Source of the DNA: a virus
UHGV virus genome: UHGV-0083157
Length of the DNA stretch: 10,230 bases
Direction: 5' to 3' (one strand)
Below are positions 3,131 to 10,230 of the stretch, in pieces. The position numbers and the translations under genes were made by a program. The number at the start of each line of letters is the position of its first letter. The stretch's first letter is position 1. The notes below the pieces were generated by a model. That model saw only the letters and a program-made list of their open reading frames with translations. It was not told the origin of the DNA and did no database searches.

Positions 3131-4732
3131 ATGGATTTGAATGCTGTTAAGCAGAAGCGAGTGGAAGATGTAAGGAGAGTCCTAGCTGGAGAGTTGGGAC
3201 TTTCTGATGAAGTTAAAGATATTATCAAGTCATTTGGTAAAGACCCCTCTAAATTCCTTCCTACTCAGATTCTGACTTTATTAAGATACACTCCAGACCA
3301 AGTAAGACTTATCTTCAAACTTATGACTGATAAGAACTATGTAGCTCCACAACCCGGCTCTCAGGAAGTATTTCTTAACACAAATGCTGACTTAGTTCTG
3401 TATGGTGGTGCTGCTGGTGCTGGTAAGACTGCTGCTTTGCTGATGGATTCACTCAGATTTATCGAAGACCCTAACTATAACGCTGTATACTTCCGTCGAA
3501 ACACGACACAGTTACAAGGTGGTTTATGGCCTGCTGCGAAGAAGCTTTTTGGTAAGTTCGGTGGTGTCCCACATGAACAGAAGATGACTATTGTATTCCC
3601 TTCTGGGGCTACTATCAAGTTTACCTACTTAGAACTTGAAAAACACGCTGAAGGTCATCAGGGTATTGAATACTCAGCAATTTACTTTGACGAAGGTACA
3701 CACTTCTCTGCGTCACAGATTTCATACCTACAAACACGTCTTCGTTCTGGTGCTGAAGGTGACTCTTACATGAAGATTTCCATGAACCCAGACAGAGACC
3801 ACTTCATTTACGATTGGGTAGAACCATTCTTAGACGAAGAAGGTTATCCAGACCCTGAGAAATGTGGTCGTATTCGTTGGTATGTGATGAGTGATGGCGT
3901 GATGGTATCTGATTGGGATAGAGACAAGATTCTTGAAATGTTTCCTCTGGAGATTCCTCAGACGTATACTTTTATCTCTGGTACGATTGATGATAACCCA
4001 ATTCTTGACTTCTTGGAACCGAAGTATCGTGGTAAGCTTGAAAACAACACTCCAGTAAACGTTGCACGTTTGAGATTTGGTAACTGGAAAGCTCGTGCAG
4101 AAGGTTCTAACTATTGGCAAAGGCAATGGTGTGAGATTGTTGATTCAGTTCCACCTGATGTATTTGATGTTAGAGCATGGGACTTAGCGGCTACTTTACC
4201 TTCTGAAGTTAACCCTAACCCTGACTGGACAGCGGGTGTTAGAATGGCTAAATCTAAAAAAGATGGTTGCTATTATGTCATGAACGTAGTAAGATTTAGA
4301 GATAGACCTTCTGGAGTCGAGACACAAATTAACTTGACTGCTGAAAGCGACGGCAAACGTACTGGTATCTTTATTCCTCAAGACCCAGGCGCTGCTGGTA
4401 AATCCTACGCAACATCTCTTATCAGAAAACTTGCCGAGAAAGGTTATCGTGCAAGAGCCAAACCAACCAATAAAGATAAAGTTACCCGTTTTGCGGGTTT
4501 CTCTGCTGCTTCTGAAGCAGGATTGGTAAAAATCGTTAGAGGTAGCTGGAACGAAGCCTATTTCCAAGAACTTGAAGGTTTTTGTGGAGATGGGAAAACC
4601 AAGGATGACCAAGTGGATGCCACAAGCGATGCTTTCAACAGTCTCAACGAAGTAAAACTATTCAAGCCGCCTTCTATGGGTACTCACACTGATTTAGTGA
4701 GAAGCAATCCTTATGAGGGGCTTAGACGTTAA
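3131..4732 (+). CDS. Terminase large subunit (533 aa from ATG 3131; ORF track uses an upstream TTG at 3116)
   Basis: GGAGG (3120-3124) 6 nt before ATG 3131; Walker A-like LVLYGGAAGAGKTAA; Walker B-like AIYFDEGTHF; C-terminal nuclease-like region with VRAWDLAAT; size and position before the portal gene are typical of TerL. Confidence 0.85.
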   Translation: MDLNAVKQKRVEDVRRVLAGELGLSDEVKDIIKSFGKDPSKFLPTQILTLLRYTPDQVRLIFKLMTDKNYVAPQPGSQEVFLNTNADLVLYGGAAGAGKTAALLMDSLRFIEDPNYNAVYFRRNTTQLQGGLWPAAKKLFGKFGGVPHEQKMTIVFPSGATIKFTYLELEKHAEGHQGIEYSAIYFDEGTHFSASQISYLQTRLRSGAEGDSYMKISMNPDRDHFIYDWVEPFLDEEGYPDPEKCGRIRWYVMSDGVMVSDWDRDKILEMFPLEIPQTYTFISGTIDDNPILDFLEPKYRGKLENNTPVNVARLRFGNWKARAEGSNYWQRQWCEIVDSVPPDVFDVRAWDLAATLPSEVNPNPDWTAGVRMAKSKKDGCYYVMNVVRFRDRPSGVETQINLTAESDGKRTGIFIPQDPGAAGKSYATSLIRKLAEKGYRARAKPTNKDKVTRFAGFSAASEAGLVKIVRGSWNEAYFQELEGFCGDGKTKDDQVDATSDAFNSLNEVKLFKPPSMGTHTDLVRSNPYEGLRR

Positions 4733-4749
4733 CAATTCAGGTGAGAAGA
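4726..4749 (+). repeat. Translation-initiation-region repeat copy 1 (ACGTTAACAATTCAGGTGA + GAAGA) abutting the portal ATG and overlapping the TerL stop codon
   Basis: 19-nt core 4726-4744 is identical to 7919-7937; contains SD-like AGGTGA (4739-4744) 5 nt before ATG 4750. Confidence 0.7.
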
Positions 4750-6216
4750 ATGGCAGAAATTACAGAAACACAAGAAAACCTACCTCCATTCAGAATGGGT
4801 GAGGTTGGGAGCCTTGGTTTAAAGGTTCGTAATGGAAGAATCTACGAAGAACCTAGACAAGCTTTAAGATTCCCAGAAAGTATTAAAACTTTCCAACTAA
4901 TGATGCGTGACCCCGCTGTAGCGGCATCTGTAAACATTATTAAGATGTTTGTTAGAAAAGTCAACTGGAGATTTGTTCCTCCGAAGGGAAAAGAACAAGA
5001 CCCTAAGATGATTGAACGGGCAGACTTCTTTAACTCTCTGATGGATGACATGGAGCATGATTGGGCTGACTTTATTAACTCTGTAATGTCATTCTGTACT
5101 TACGGATTCTGCGTGAATGAGAAAGTTTACAAGAAGCGTCAGGGTAATAAAGGGAAATACCCTTCAAGATATAATGATGGTTTAATTGGTTGGGCTAAAC
5201 TCCCTATCAGAAACCAGTCAACTCTTGATAAATGGTATTTTGATTCAGACTATCGAAAAGTAACAGGTGTTAGACAGAATCTGAGAAACGTTTCACACAT
5301 TGCTGGAGCTATTAATCTGGCTGAACAGCCACTAACAAGAAAACTTCCAAGAAGTAAATTCTTGCTGTTCAAATATGATGATGAGTACGGTAACCCAGAA
5401 GGTCGTTCACCATTACTTAATGCTTATGTACCTTGGAAATATAAAGTCCAAATTGAAGAGTACGAAGCAGTTGGTGTTTCCAGAGACTTAGTAGGTATGC
5501 CAAAGATTGGTTTACCACCTGATTATCTGGATGAGAATGCTGAACCTGAAAAGAAAGCTTTCGTAGAATACTGCAAATCTGTAGTTAATGATATGATTGC
5601 AAATGACCGAGCAGGTTTAATCTGGCCTAGATTCATCGACCCAGAAACTAAAGAGGATATCTTTGAGTTCTCATTAGTATCTAGACAGGGTGCAAAGGCT
5701 TACGATACCGGAGCTATCATTGACCGTTATTCTAAGCAGATTATGATGGCGTTTATGTCAGACGTTCTTGCAATGGGTCAGTCAAAATATGGTTCATTCT
5801 CTTTAGCAGATTCTAAGACAAGTTTACTTGCAATGTCTGTAGATATTCTTCTGAAACAAATCAGAAACGTAATTAACCGTGACCTAGTAGCACAGACTTA
5901 CGCTCTGAATATGTGGGATGATGAAGAACACGTTCAAATCGTTTATGACGACATTGAAACTCCAGACCTTGAAGCTATTGGTGCTTACATTCAGAAGACC
6001 GTTGCAGTTGGTGCTATGGAAGTTGATAAGGAACTGTCTAACAAGCTTAGAGAACACATTGGATTACCACCTGCTGATGAGTCTCAACCTGTGTCTGAAG
6101 AATTATCTCCTAACACTCAAAGTCGTTCAGGTGATGGTTATAAGACTGCCGGAGAGGGAACTGCGAAGACCCCTTCAGCAAAAGACCCAAGTACAGCGAA
6201 TAAGGCAAATAAATAA
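4750..6216 (+). CDS. Portal protein (putative; 488 aa from ATG 4750; ORF track uses GTG 4741)
   Basis: Follows TerL directly; AGGTGA SD 5 nt upstream of ATG 4750; size about 490 aa with acidic/low-complexity C-terminal tail; position between terminase and prohead protease. No direct homology check was possible. Confidence 0.65.
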   Translation: MAEITETQENLPPFRMGEVGSLGLKVRNGRIYEEPRQALRFPESIKTFQLMMRDPAVAASVNIIKMFVRKVNWRFVPPKGKEQDPKMIERADFFNSLMDDMEHDWADFINSVMSFCTYGFCVNEKVYKKRQGNKGKYPSRYNDGLIGWAKLPIRNQSTLDKWYFDSDYRKVTGVRQNLRNVSHIAGAINLAEQPLTRKLPRSKFLLFKYDDEYGNPEGRSPLLNAYVPWKYKVQIEEYEAVGVSRDLVGMPKIGLPPDYLDENAEPEKKAFVEYCKSVVNDMIANDRAGLIWPRFIDPETKEDIFEFSLVSRQGAKAYDTGAIIDRYSKQIMMAFMSDVLAMGQSKYGSFSLADSKTSLLAMSVDILLKQIRNVINRDLVAQTYALNMWDDEEHVQIVYDDIETPDLEAIGAYIQKTVAVGAMEVDKELSNKLREHIGLPPADESQPVSEELSPNTQSRSGDGYKTAGEGTAKTPSAKDPSTANKANK

Positions 6217-6584
6217 TGGCTGAAGTTATCTCTATTTCAAATGCTACACGAGTGCATTCGTATAGAGGTGTTCTGGTTATTACTGATACGTTATCTGTAG
6301 AGGCTGGCTCAAGGGTCAGCCTTTCAGGTTATGTAAGTGATGGTGGAACCTCTAACGTTTTCACTATTTGCAGGTTACTTGATGCTCCAATGAACGGAAA
6401 TTCGTTTATTTCAAACAATTGTAGCGAAATTGTTAAAATTCTATTTGACAGTTCATGCCTTTTGGGTGTAAAGTTATATAACTGTGAGAATAAACGTATA
6501 AACGTTAATAGCGTTGAAGCTGCGTTCATTACCATTGACACAGCATTTCAATCCCCAATGACAGTAAACAAGATCGGAGTCTAA
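6216..6584 (+). CDS. Hypothetical protein (122 aa, beta-rich, 4 Cys), start overlaps the portal stop (TAATG)
   Basis: ATG 6216-6218 overlaps portal TAA 6214-6216 (translational coupling); open to TAA 6582-6584; no recognisable motif. Confidence 0.5.
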   Translation: MAEVISISNATRVHSYRGVLVITDTLSVEAGSRVSLSGYVSDGGTSNVFTICRLLDAPMNGNSFISNNCSEIVKILFDSSCLLGVKLYNCENKRINVNSVEAAFITIDTAFQSPMTVNKIGV

Positions 6585-6624
6585 CAGACTTGAGTACATT
6601 TTTTCACAAAATGATTACAAAGTA

Positions 6625-6652
6625 CTTGTCAAAGGTAAAGTGTATGATATGA
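6625..6652 (+). promoter_or_regulatory. Candidate sigma70-like promoter (TTGTCA - 16 nt - TATGAT) in the 135-nt gap before ORF 6720
   Basis: -35-like TTGTCA 6625-6630 and -10-like TATGAT 6647-6652 in an AT-rich non-coding gap. Sequence-only call. Confidence 0.25.
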
Positions 6653-6719
6653 TTGTAAATGTGGTGGATGAATCTGGTAACCATTCAACAGTCCTTAAAC
6701 AGAAAGTAAGGTTCAATTA

Positions 6720-7052
6720 ATGGGAACATTAACTATTGATGGTAAGAATAAAATCCTCGCCACGCTAACCCCAACGACTATTGTTTTACACAATGTAGAC
6801 CCAACGGCAGACCCTACAGCAAATAAGGTTACTCAGCCAGTGGCTATTTATTTCTCTGAACCGAACAACGGCTTAATCGCCTCAGAAGATACAGTCAAGA
6901 TTACTGTACCAGCTTCTGCAACGGTCTCACACTATAGCCTATGGGATGCCAACGATAAATGCGTGGCAACAGGTGCTCTTAGCAGCCCTCAATTCTTTGC
7001 TGAAGAAGGTATCTATGTTATCGCTTCAGTATCGGTGGATTTAAACAAATAG
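6720..7052 (+). CDS. Hypothetical protein (110 aa, Thr/Val/Ala-rich, likely beta-rich)
   Basis: ATG 6720 with AAGG (6707-6710) upstream; stop TAG 7050-7052, 10 nt before the protease ATG; no recognisable motif. Confidence 0.5.
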   Translation: MGTLTIDGKNKILATLTPTTIVLHNVDPTADPTANKVTQPVAIYFSEPNNGLIASEDTVKITVPASATVSHYSLWDANDKCVATGALSSPQFFAEEGIYVIASVSVDLNK

Positions 7053-7062
7053 GGTGAGTAAA

Positions 7063-8406
7063 ATGAGTTCGAATATCTTCAGACTTGCTGATAGATTATT
7101 CAACCAACCTTTACTAGCCACTGAATCTCTAGCTCACTCAGCAGCGACTTATGTAAATAACCGCTTGTTAGGTGAAGTTCAAGCAGCAGTCAATTTCGAC
7201 AAACCTAAAGGTGAGGCAAGAAGTCTTTTAAAAGTTAAAGACGACATTGCTATTATCCCTATTATGGGTGGCCTAACACATCGTATGACATTTATGGATG
7301 CAATGTGTACTGGTGGTCTAAGTTCTTATGAAGGTTTACGCAGAGGCTTCGACGAAGCTTTAGCAGATGAATCTATTAAGACGATTGTACTGCACGTTGA
7401 TTCTGGTGGTGGTGAAGCTTCAGGTTGTTTTGAATTAGCACGTCACATCGTAGCCTCCAGAGGCAAAAAGAAAATTGTAGCATATGTTGATGAGTTCGCA
7501 TGTTCCGCTGCGTATGCACTTGCATGTTCTGCTGATGAAGTAATTGCATCACCAGATGCAGATGTTGGTTCAATCGGTGTAATTATGGTTCACCAAGAAT
7601 TAACTAAAGCGTTTGAAAAGAATGGCGTTACAATTAACGTTATTAAAGCTGGTGAATTTAAAGGTTTGGGTTCCCCATTCCAAGCACTCTCAGAAGAAAG
7701 CAAAACAAGACTTCAACAGAGAATTAATGACACCTATAACACCTTCACAGGTTTTGTAGCTGATTCACGTAATATCTCCGAAGAAGCTGTAAAGAATACT
7801 GAGGCGAATGTTTATTCTGCTCAGGAAGCTCTTGAACTTGGTTTAATTAATTCAATCATGTCTCAAGATGATTTCTTAAATTACTTACAAGGTTCTGATG
7901 AAGCTCCTGTAAGTTTAAACGTTAACAATTCAGGTGAAGAAATGACTGAACAAGAAAAGCAAGAACTAGAGGCTCTACGCGCTCAGGTTGCTCAGATGAA
8001 AGCAAAAGAACAGGAAAAAACTATGTCTGAACTGACTGGTAAGATTTCTGCTTCTGCTGAAGCTTTCGGGTTTGACGCAACAGAAGCTGCTCAGGCTATC
8101 TTAGGCGCTGGTCTTGACAACCCTCTGAGTGTTCTCTTTATGAATGCTATGGAAGGTGCTAACCAGAAACTAAATGAAACTATCGCGGCTCATGCTTCTG
8201 CACTGTCAGAGAAAGATTCCGAAATCACTAAGCTGAAAGAAACTGCTGGTGCTGTTCTGGAACACTCTAACGCAATGGAAGAAATGGGTAATGACGGTGA
8301 AGCAGAACTGGTTGACGAAGAAAAACCTTCTGAAAACGCATCTGATGACACCGCAGAACAACGCAAACTGGCTCTCCAGAATGCTTTGAAATCTCTTATC
8401 AAATAA
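7063..8406 (+). CDS. Prohead (head maturation) protease, S49/SppA-like, fused to a C-terminal coiled-coil scaffold-like domain (447 aa from ATG 7063; ORF track uses GTG 7054)
   Basis: GGTGA (7053-7057) 5 nt before ATG 7063; motifs IPIMGGLTH, HVDSGGGEASG and EFACSAAYALACSAD resemble the S49 (lambda gpC / SppA) Ser-Lys peptidase fold; residues from about 295 onward are acidic, Ala/Glu/Lys/Gln-rich and heptad-like, as in scaffolding proteins. Confidence 0.8.
   Translation: MSSNIFRLADRLFNQPLLATESLAHSAATYVNNRLLGEVQAAVNFDKPKGEARSLLKVKDDIAIIPIMGGLTHRMTFMDAMCTGGLSSYEGLRRGFDEALADESIKTIVLHVDSGGGEASGCFELARHIVASRGKKKIVAYVDEFACSAAYALACSADEVIASPDADVGSIGVIMVHQELTKAFEKNGVTINVIKAGEFKGLGSPFQALSEESKTRLQQRINDTYNTFTGFVADSRNISEEAVKNTEANVYSAQEALELGLINSIMSQDDFLNYLQGSDEAPVSLNVNNSGEEMTEQEKQELEALRAQVAQMKAKEQEKTMSELTGKISASAEAFGFDATEAAQAILGAGLDNPLSVLFMNAMEGANQKLNETIAAHASALSEKDSEITKLKETAGAVLEHSNAMEEMGNDGEAELVDEEKPSENASDDTAEQRKLALQNALKSLIK
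7919..7941 (+). repeat. Translation-initiation-region repeat copy 2 (ACGTTAACAATTCAGGTGA + AGAA) abutting an internal in-frame ATG of the protease gene
   Basis: 19-nt core 7919-7937 is identical to 4726-4744; SD-like AGGTGA (7932-7937) 4 nt before ATG 7942. Confidence 0.7.
7942..8406 (+). CDS. Putative nested scaffolding protein (154 aa) translated from an in-frame internal start within the protease gene (lambda C/Nu3-like arrangement)
   Basis: In-frame ATG 7942 preceded by a strong SD and the exact portal TIR repeat; it lies at the boundary between the protease domain and the coiled-coil domain; product MTEQEKQELEALRAQVAQMKAKEQEK... is helical and acidic. Confidence 0.4.
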   Translation: MTEQEKQELEALRAQVAQMKAKEQEKTMSELTGKISASAEAFGFDATEAAQAILGAGLDNPLSVLFMNAMEGANQKLNETIAAHASALSEKDSEITKLKETAGAVLEHSNAMEEMGNDGEAELVDEEKPSENASDDTAEQRKLALQNALKSLIK

Positions 8407-8418
8407 GGAACACAAATA

Positions 8419-8796
8419 ATGGCATATGAAGGTTTTACTCACTTAGGTAACAGAGAACCACTGAATGATATCATTCTTTGGGAACAGATTACACCAACAG
8501 GTCACTCTCGTAAGGAGTACGCTCCAGTCGCTTCCACAGAATACCGTGTAGGTGAAGTTCTGAAAGCTGATGGAACCAAAGTTGCAGCAGGTGAAGAAGC
8601 TCAGGCTGACTCTGTTTGCATCGTTAACTTCTACGCAGACCTGCAACTGTCTTACCACGGTCAGTTGAAAGTTGTTGGTATCTACCGTGATGCTGAACTG
8701 AAAGACCTCTTAACTCTGGCTGATGGCGTTGACGCTGCTGCTGTTAAGACTGCTCTTGCAGCGAAAGGCATTGATTTCGTACCAACTGGCCTGTAA
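8419..8796 (+). CDS. Putative head decoration/auxiliary capsid protein (125 aa), in the gpD-equivalent position
   Basis: ATG 8419 with AGGA (8406-8409) upstream; stop TAA 8794-8796; small protein between protease/scaffold and major capsid gene, as in lambda-like head modules. Function assigned from position and size only. Confidence 0.45.
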   Translation: MAYEGFTHLGNREPLNDIILWEQITPTGHSRKEYAPVASTEYRVGEVLKADGTKVAAGEEAQADSVCIVNFYADLQLSYHGQLKVVGIYRDAELKDLLTLADGVDAAAVKTALAAKGIDFVPTGL

Positions 8797-9939: not shown

Positions 9940-9959
9940 TACTTGAAAGGGGGTTATAA

Positions 9960-10230
9960 ATGTGTTATACAGGCGACCCAGCCAATAACCCTCTTGATAG
10001 AGTAAGAATCCTCTGCACCGACACCAATAATGATGAACTTCTCATTGAACAGTCGGTGCTAGAGTGGTTCTATGTGGAATCTGGTAAAGACGAAAAGAAA
10101 GCAGCCATCAAAGCTCTTAAATATTTACTCTTTCAAGTAGCCAAGATGGGAGATGAGAAAGTTGGTGGTGTTTACTTACGTAACTCTTCCAGATTCAAGT
10201 CTCTAAAAGCTGTCTACGACGACCTGATTA
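9960..10230 (+). CDS. Hypothetical head-associated protein, 3'-truncated by window end (at least 90 aa; possibly a head-tail connector or head completion protein by position)
   Basis: ATG 9960 preceded by GGGGG (9949-9953); open frame with no stop to the window end (MCYTGDPANNPLDRVRILCTDTNNDELLIEQSVLEWFYVESGKDEKK...); not in the ORF track because it has no stop in the window. Confidence 0.45.
   Translation, partial: MCYTGDPANNPLDRVRILCTDTNNDELLIEQSVLEWFYVESGKDEKKAAIKALKYLLFQVAKMGDEKVGGVYLRNSSRFKSLKAVYDDLI

Follow-up and report, generated by a model that had tools for sequence, protein, structure and literature searches.

The region between positions 6216 and 7052 almost certainly encodes both parts of the neck collar-whisker complex of the Ounavirinae, with the collar gene carrying GATCG instead of a single A. 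The window, i.e., the whole stretch of DNA analysed, is a 10,230-nt ENA metagenome contig, the name of which gives cov_3.34 (k-mer coverage 3.3); it belongs to a Suspvirus, a Felix O1-like myophage with approximately 97.5% identity to phages CHB7, EcSzw-2, and mistaenkt. Both proteins are already known and nearly identical to solved ones, and no finding speaks against their identification. The two ORFs of 122 and 110 amino acids on the + strand described in an earlier note on this DNA are present, but they are not two separate inserted small genes: positions 6216-6720 form a single uninterrupted 501-nt CDS in every annotated relative inspected, compared with 505 nt in the window. The window collar is either a disrupted allele of the family gene or a copy of it that was assembled wrongly; a real frameshift and wrong base calls are about equally likely. 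Coordinates are given in Table 1.

Table 1 Features of the collar-whisker region and its neighbourhood in the 10,230-nt window. Positions are those of the whole window; aa, amino acids.
Feature	Position	Strand	Description
Portal gene, Mu-type	4750..6216	+	PF06074, phrog_113; start as annotated in relatives
Collar gene, frameshift-disrupted	6216..6720	+	Homologue of Bas63 gp4 and Sf14 gp30 (FDI99_gp127); phrog_3977
Called ORF, 122 aa	6216..6584	+	Collar residues 1-119, then aberrant I-G-V; stop at 6582-6584
Frameshifting lesion	6572..6576	+	GATCG versus single A in relatives; net +4 nt
Out-of-frame collar remainder	6577..6720	+	Codons 120-166 and stop; frame +1 translation
Promoter-like hexamers	6626..6653	+	TTGTCA-16-TATGAT with upstream TG; 10/12 hexamer match; native codons L-V-K-G-K-V-Y-D-M-I
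Whisker gene, intact, 110 aa	6720..7052	+	Homologue of Bas63 gp5 and Sf14 gp31 (FDI99_gp126)
Adaptor gene, 5' part	9960..10229	+	Translation begins M-C; cut by contig end

The gene order in the window is portal, collar, whisker, protease, Dec, MCP, and adaptor, which is the order of gp3-gp9 in Bas63 (PMC12609058). The stop codon of the portal gene, TAA at 6214-6216, and the collar ATG at 6216 overlap as TAATG (6214-6218), as the earlier note had seen, and the layout from this TAATG to a second one at the collar-whisker junction is common to SUSP1, mistaenkt, GEC_vB_B1, CHB7, EcSzw-2, PC79-13, Felix O1, and L013. The description of the head module as lambda-like holds for the S49 protease and the PF03864 capsid protein, both lambda C/E-like, but not for the portal, which is of the Mu type.

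The lesion was found by alignment with SUSP1, mistaenkt, and GEC_vB_B1; the window reads AAGATCGGAGTC across it, and the wild-type counterpart is AAAGAGTC. Reversion of GATCG to A gives a 166-aa ORF of which the sole difference from the SUSP1 collar is P76L, at a proline invariant across the collar family. The SUSP1 collar and the restored ORF match, over residues 1-166, the PDB chains 9MT4_G ("Collar protein", E 8e-100) and 9C39_I (E 6e-102), and the in-frame residues 1-119 match phrog_3977 (E 4e-64). The same two chains, 9mt4_G and 9c39_I, were ranked top by Foldseek with an AF2 model of an intact collar homologue. Confidence of this model is moderate overall (pLDDT 64), lowered by the N-terminal rope (residues 1-49), which is disordered in the absence of whiskers; at approximately 62-86, the Ig-like domain is good enough for use, except for the low-confidence loop 61-70. 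Its strands span residues 51-58, 73-75, 81-88, 100-107, 111-118, 123-128, 141-150, and 155-165. The earlier view of both products as beta-rich accessory virion proteins, extra relative to lambda, stands, the structure check by AF2 and Foldseek leading, for the collar, to Ig-like collar chains. A Pfam search gave no family above threshold for the collar or the whisker protein; matches to TRAP_alpha, SH3_12, and Big_10 were dismissed as sub-threshold noise.

The four cysteines counted in the 122-aa product are C52, C69, C81, and C90, all of them family-invariant. They matter in view of the putative disulfides published for the complex, i.e., Cys52-Cys90 between collar subunits and collar Cys69 to adaptor Cys2 (PMC12609058). 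The adaptor ORF in the window supplies, with its second residue, the putative partner for Cys69.

The whisker gene, located between the collar and the S49 protease genes, is intact. Over its full length (residues 1-110) the product matches the solved whisker chains 9MT4_I (E 1e-66) and 9C39_K (E 4e-65), and it also matches phrog_240 "head protein" (E 1e-27). An SD-like TAAGG is found upstream of its start (6707-6711), and the only window-specific change in the gene is synonymous.

Both components are known from cryo-EM structures of virion necks, in two studies dating from 2025: Bas63 (Escherichia phage JohannRWettstein; PDB 9MT4; PMC12609058) and Shigella phage Sf14 (PDB 9C39; PMC11821841). 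Bas63 gp4 and gp5 align over their full length with the window collar and whisker, and Bas63 shares with the window the order portal-collar-whisker-protease-Dec-MCP-adaptor, Cys52, Cys69, and Cys90 of the collar, and Cys2 of the adaptor. Bas63 differs in that it belongs to Felixounavirus, whereas the window is Suspvirus, and the window collar ORF is, unlike that of Bas63, cut after residue 119 by the +4 frameshift and carries P76L. The E values given above for the 9C39 chains refer to Sf14 gp30 and gp31, both detected in virions by mass spectrometry; the Sf14 collar gene is intact. The Sf14 paper names both proteins "whisker", and "collar" is there another protein (PMC11821841).

Sequence likeness to Fiber-1 of the Ralstonia podophage GP4 (gp80, PF23140) is lower. 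The window whisker scores 22.9 bits against PF23140 (Gp80), below the gathering cut-off of 27; nine of the 11 whisker family members reach E ≤ 0.01 (best E 5e-9), and a PDB search with a whisker family profile (E ≤ 1) gave no chain from GP4. The relationship between the whisker and GP4 is supported by structure in the literature and not by sequence here. GP4 differs further in having separate rope and Ig-like collar proteins and a longer rope that binds five dimers. T4 Wac (fibritin) and XM1 gp40 hold an analogous neck position with an up/down whisker arrangement, but they are trimeric coiled-coil fibres for which no relationship by sequence to the window proteins was detected, and the likeness is one of functional analogy only; XM1 gp40 has an Ig-like N-terminal domain (PMC12609058).

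According to the literature on Bas63 and Sf14 (cryo-EM and mass spectrometry), twelve copies of the 166-aa collar form an Ig-like ring around the adaptor/head-completion interface, stapled by the putative disulfides described above. The N-terminal rope of each copy (approximately 47 residues) threads two dimers of the 110-aa whisker protein, and the whiskers alternate between an upward position, towards the capsid decoration proteins, and a downward position, towards the terminator and sheath. The papers speculate that the complex stabilises the joint between head and tail and perhaps also touches LPS.

In the window the intact 166-aa collar frame with its full Ig-like ring domain is absent, since the net +4 nt ends the collar ORF at 6584, after K119-I-G-V. 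The 122-aa ORF holds the N-terminal rope (approximately residues 1-49) and strands one to five of the Ig-like domain; strands 123-128, 141-150, and 155-165 of the AF2 model of the intact homologue fall past the premature stop. Translation of the collar in the contig would end at residue 119 plus three aberrant residues, the remaining 47 codons being out of frame. Provided that the base calls are correct, the product would lack three of the eight Ig-like strands and should not form the ring, which would leave the whisker protein, the TAAGG ribosome-binding site of which is kept, without an anchor. With incorrect base calls, the phage would be an ordinary Suspvirus.

There is close to an even chance that the lesion is a real mutation and that it belongs to a phage, whether viable or defective, whose collar is truncated at the C terminus and probably does not function. 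Outside the collar gene, terL, portal, whisker, protease, Dec, and MCP together have 26 window-specific substitutions, 22 of them synonymous, so that the contig reflects true divergence and not random error, and these six genes contain no second frameshift. P76L, located in the same gene, is as expected under relaxed constraint, and the identical 122-aa product was retrieved by exact-protein look-up from two ENA contigs (10,230 and 10,288 nt), although these may share the same reads. Against a real mutation, the lesion is unique: megablast with 81 nt across the site found the insertion in 0 of 72 matching phage records (best identity 95.1%), it is carried by none of the 300 records having the collar gene, and the exact 28-mer with the insertion had no match in IMG/VR and none in the JGI metagenomes. 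In addition, the downstream sequence is without further decay (one synonymous change only), and the change is a complex one, an indel plus a substitution.

A slightly less than even chance falls to a sequencing or assembly artefact of a contig with low coverage (cov_3.34), the real phage having an intact 166-aa collar gene. The lesion creates the 8-mer AGATCGGA at 6571-6578, which is the 8-nt prefix of the Illumina adapter AGATCGGAAGAGC; it occurs once in the window, at the lesion, with 0.14 occurrences expected per window. The match is, however, limited to 8 nt, the next 5 nt being different (the 13-mer is not matched), and an adapter remnant should end a read rather than rejoin the genome in register. 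An artefact agrees with the intact collar gene in every sequenced isolate examined, but the accuracy of the contig at the level of substitutions looks good, and P76L in the collar gene would need a separate explanation. Other shortened collar calls were found only in raw assemblies (P0005, P0006) or in an old partial record (P0004, the Felix O1 entry O80228), which fits an artefact too. These calls were considered as a recurrent natural truncation of the collar and rejected as such: they result from different frameshifts or contig ends, and they give no sign of recurrence because the collar gene is intact in the complete genome of Felix O1.

A real frameshift would be a natural collar-null allele, useful for testing the need for the complex in head-tail stability or adsorption. 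That it also marks a naturally circulating Suspvirus lineage, with a collar lacking the last three Ig-like strands and carrying P76L, and with virions lacking the collar-whisker complex, is unlikely. The T4 wac whiskers are dispensable, which by analogy favours a real mutation, and if such a lineage circulates, phages in nature would be able to do without the collar-whisker complex, just as T4 can do without wac in the laboratory.

Very improbable is the original proposal, in which two small genes, coding for morons or accessory capsid proteins, are independent of each other and have between them a true intergenic region with a sigma-70 promoter for the second gene. In the contig, ribosomes do stop 135 nt before the whisker start, and no ORF is called between 6585 and 6719 in the frame of the first ORF; judged by its codons, this gap is not intergenic but is the end of the collar gene, its last 47 codons out of frame. 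Its frame +1 translation, ESNRLEYIFSQNDYKVLVKGKVYDMIVNVVDESGNHSTVLKQKVRFN followed by a stop, is identical to residues 120-166 of the SUSP1 collar; it reads E-S-N-R-L-E-Y to K-V-R-F-N, and the stop overlaps the whisker ATG as the second TAATG (6718-6722). In relatives the gap is coding sequence subject to purifying selection: between the window and GEC_vB_B1, codons 119-166 show seven synonymous codon differences and one nonsynonymous, with eight of the nine base differences at the third position, and 25 of the last 48 collar columns are invariant across homologues down to 59% identity to the first sequence.

The sigma-70-like site proposed as a promoter does exist, one base further downstream than the 6625-6652 first given, and its hexamers and upstream TG favour the two-gene proposal. 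It lies inside collar codons, however, and such sites occur at chance frequency (11 observed in 4700-8500 versus 8.3 ± 3.0 in shuffles). The hexamer sequences are identical in SUSP1, mistaenkt, and GEC_vB_B1, in keeping with their place in a conserved coding sequence. No terminator-like site was found within 6216-7052. The AT-richness noted for the gap was not borne out as a distinctive feature: its GC of 0.34 is the bottom of the 0.34-0.45 found locally (the next-lowest windows having 0.36-0.38), and its composition is not atypical.

The synteny comparison placed the collar and whisker genes each in 300 of 300 matching phage records, and they are therefore not morons. Their presence is not sporadic, and in terms of sequence neither an own promoter or terminator nor an atypical composition sets them apart; the moron reading was rejected on this conservation, on the coding constraint in the gap, and on the chance-level promoter count. 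Both proteins are conserved in the relatives as core components with known function, which is the first half of the outcome that the earlier note had set against its own proposal; as to the second half, the absence of an independent start in the gap, nothing supports the candidate promoter. Its alternative label, accessory capsid proteins, is correct in that both are virion components of Bas63 and Sf14 by mass spectrometry and cryo-EM, but these are placed in the neck and not in the capsid shell. A single indel in a low-coverage contig has made a conserved gene look like a small ORF plus a promoter-bearing gap.

Programmed +1 ribosomal frameshifting, or another form of recoding, yielding a full-length collar from both frames is the least credible explanation: nothing is missing from the downstream frame, which runs into the native TAATG overlap, but the mechanism was rejected because relatives have one ORF and need no frameshift, and because neither a slippery nor a hungry-codon motif is present in the overlap in which both frames are open (approximately five codons, 6568-6584). 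A T6 run is located at 6600-6605, downstream of the 0-frame stop.

Coverage of the collar is at least 80% in all 300 records, and the gene is in a single piece in 30 of 30 among the matches listed. Phages carrying both genes are named for Escherichia, Salmonella, Shigella, Citrobacter, Erwinia, Hafnia, and Pectobacterium, and the order portal, collar, whisker, S49 protease, Dec, and MCP is kept in L013, with 60% collar identity. In most genome records listed, the two products are still labelled "hypothetical protein" or "head protein", and the practical use of the present result is for annotation. In far relatives (L010) the gene order is the same and the collar gene encodes 657 aa (positions 4028-6001 of L010).

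The window was placed in the Ounavirinae, genus Suspvirus, by megablast, with 97.4–97.7% identity over its full length to phages CHB7, EcSzw-2, PC79-13 and mistaenkt, and about 88–89% to Felixounavirus genomes. Its sequence is that of ENA metagenome contig ERZ772937 NODE_2878 (coverage 3.342408).

Gene content of the window (empty cells, coordinates not given)
Feature	Coordinates	Remarks
tRNA cluster		12 tRNAs called (ARAGORN)
Large terminase		
Portal		Mu-type, PF06074
Collar ORF	6216–6584	122 aa; after portal, before protease/scaffold
Whisker ORF	6720–7052	110 aa; after portal, before protease/scaffold
Protease/scaffold		S49
Beta-tulip decoration protein	8419–8796	125 aa
Major capsid protein (MCP)		E-type
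Adaptor gene		start only within window; ORF begins M-C

Both ORFs described in the earlier note are present, and the stop codon of the portal gene shares a TAATG with the start of the 122-aa ORF; the 135-nt intergenic gap reported between them is coding sequence instead. Read in frame +1, this stretch gives ESNRLEYIFSQNDYKVLVKGKVYDMIVNVVDESGNHSTVLKQKVRFN*, its stop overlapping the ATG of the 110-aa ORF as a second TAATG, and one 501-nt CDS (166 aa) spans it in SUSP1, mistaenkt, GEC_vB_B1, CHB7, EcSzw-2, PC79-13, Felix O1, and L013 (a relative with 60% collar identity). GATCG at 6572–6576 in the window replaces A in every aligned relative (net +4 nt) and is the single cause of the frame break; on reverting it to A, the 166-aa ORF is regained, identical to that of SUSP1 save P76L. 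Because codon differences between the out-of-frame part and GEC_vB_B1 are mostly synonymous (7 synonymous, 1 non-synonymous), with 8 of 9 base differences at third positions, and 25 of 48 residues are invariant (homologues down to 59% identity to the first sequence), this part is, from its substitution pattern, clearly coding sequence in relatives.

The candidate promoter proposed for the gap, TTGTCA-16-TATGAT, exists at 6626–6653 but lies within conserved codons for L-V-K-G-K-V-Y-D-M-I; the same hexamers are aligned in SUSP1, mistaenkt, and GEC_vB_B1, and promoter-like matches numbered 11 in 3.8 kb versus 8.3 ± 3.0 in shuffles. The supposed AT-richness holds insofar as the GC content of the gap falls among the lowest local values, though still inside their range. 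No terminator-like site was found in 6216–7052.

The two ORFs correspond to Bas63 gp4/gp5 and Sf14 gp30/gp31, which are known and structurally solved proteins. Once restored, the 166-aa protein aligns end to end with the chain named "Collar protein" of Bas63 (PDB 9MT4 chain G, E 8e-100) and its Sf14 counterpart (9C39 chain I, E 6e-102); the 110-aa protein matches 9MT4_I (E 1e-66) and 9C39_K (E 4e-65). In an AF2 model of an intact collar homologue, residues 1–49 are disordered and 50–166 form an eight-strand Ig-like domain; its top Foldseek matches are the same two collar chains. The whisker protein scored 22.9 bits against PF23140 (GP4 gp80), under the cut-off of 27, its link to this family being made via more distant homologues and a published structure comparison. 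The Bas63 collar is a dodecameric Ig-like ring at the adaptor/head-completion interface, with two whisker dimers threaded on an N-terminal "rope"; the whiskers point alternately upward, to Dec and Hex-Dec of the capsid, and downward, to the terminator and sheath, and podophage GP4 has a related assembly, its Fiber-1/rope/collar system (PMC12609058). Both proteins were detected by mass spectrometry of Sf14 virions (PMC11821841). The four cysteines noted in the 122-aa protein (C52, C69, C81, C90) are invariant across the family; in Bas63, a putative Cys52–Cys90 disulfide joins collar subunits to each other and a second putative one joins Cys69 of the collar to Cys2 of the adaptor (PMC12609058), and no published role covers Cys81.

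Collar and whisker genes were each found in 300 phage records (tblastn), in phages named for Escherichia, Salmonella, Shigella, Citrobacter, Erwinia, Hafnia, and Pectobacterium, with collar coverage of at least 80% in 300/300 and a single piece in 30/30 among the matches listed. The order portal-collar-whisker-S49 protease-Dec-MCP is kept in distant metagenomic relatives. Judged by this distribution, both are conserved structural genes and not the morons suspected earlier. The window collar gene agrees with its family in sequence, position, and cysteines and lacks its intact ORF; the whisker gene agrees on all features tested.

As written, the collar product comprises residues 1–119 followed by I-G-V and lacks Ig-like strands 123–128, 141–150, and 155–165 (AF2 positions); such a product would probably be unable to build the ring. 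With an intact gene whose own TAAGG lies 8 nt ahead of the ATG, whisker protein would continue to be produced but would lack an anchor.

A real mutation and an artefact are about equally probable as the origin of this lesion. Head genes outside the collar carry no other frameshifts, and 22 of 26 window-specific substitutions in them are synonymous, so the contig shows genuine divergence and not random error; P76L affects an invariant proline of the same collar gene, and the identical 122-aa product is recorded on two ENA contigs. Against a real mutation, no other record or collection searched contains the lesion and no decay is seen downstream of it. An artefact would fit the contig coverage of 3.3x and the new bases, which spell AGATCGGA, an 8-mer found nowhere else in the window and with which the Illumina adapter begins; the match ends after 8 nt, however, and a leftover piece of adapter would not usually be followed by in-register genomic sequence. 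Recoding to a full-length collar is not plausible, given one frame in relatives and a two-frame overlap of ~5 codons, in which no slippery motif was found. The main lesson concerns annotation and assembly quality.

The sole other window-specific indel in the contig is a single-base deletion at 9950 versus five close relatives, in the MCP-adaptor intergenic spacer. Aberrant collar C-termini were also seen in P0004 (UniRef O80228, Felix O1, 143 aa), P0006 (143 aa, Logan), and P0005 (150 aa, ENA), whose tails come from reading the same DNA in a different frame (...DYKYLSKAKYMI and ...IFHKMITKYLSKVKYMI) and so imply 1-nt differences near AAAG and T6 runs, window ~6600–6625. For Felix O1 at least, the aberrant call goes back to an old sequencing error, as the 501-nt gene is uninterrupted in that phage's complete genome.

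Between the portal gene and a PF23140 whisker gene, distant relatives encode much longer proteins (224–728 aa) whose C-terminal ~165 aa are a collar module comprising the rope end and the Ig-like domain (L010 4028–6001, Logan SRR14611563_249; P0036, P0037, P0039, P0040, P0043, P0046). The 657-aa protein of L010 aligns with the whole collar at 32% identity (E 5e-22), and disulfide cysteines are missing from some long homologues. The rope-like motif [VIL]x[NAS]G[AS]x[VI] occurs twice in the window collar (residues 7 and 28) and up to 11 times in the N-terminal extensions (~18–21-aa spacing), which points to wide variation in the length of the rope and, with it, in the number of dimers per whisker.

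The product of 8419–8796 is the capsid decoration protein Dec, by synteny with Bas63 gp7; it matches phrog_4146 "tail protease", also the RefSeq label in SUSP1 and Felix O1, and most Felixounavirus genomes wrongly list Dec as a tail component (PMC12609058). Within the gene at 1774–2508 (DUF7217, "putative membrane protein"), ~48 window-specific substitutions fall in ~470 nt (1802–2274) when counted against five Suspvirus relatives, with 0–12 per gene elsewhere, a pattern resembling a mosaic or recombinant patch. Fourteen window-specific differences lie at the very start of the contig (19–61), inside a tRNA-Ala of the relatives that is cut by the contig end and absent from the ARAGORN calls; either misassembly at the contig end or divergence of the tRNA could account for them.
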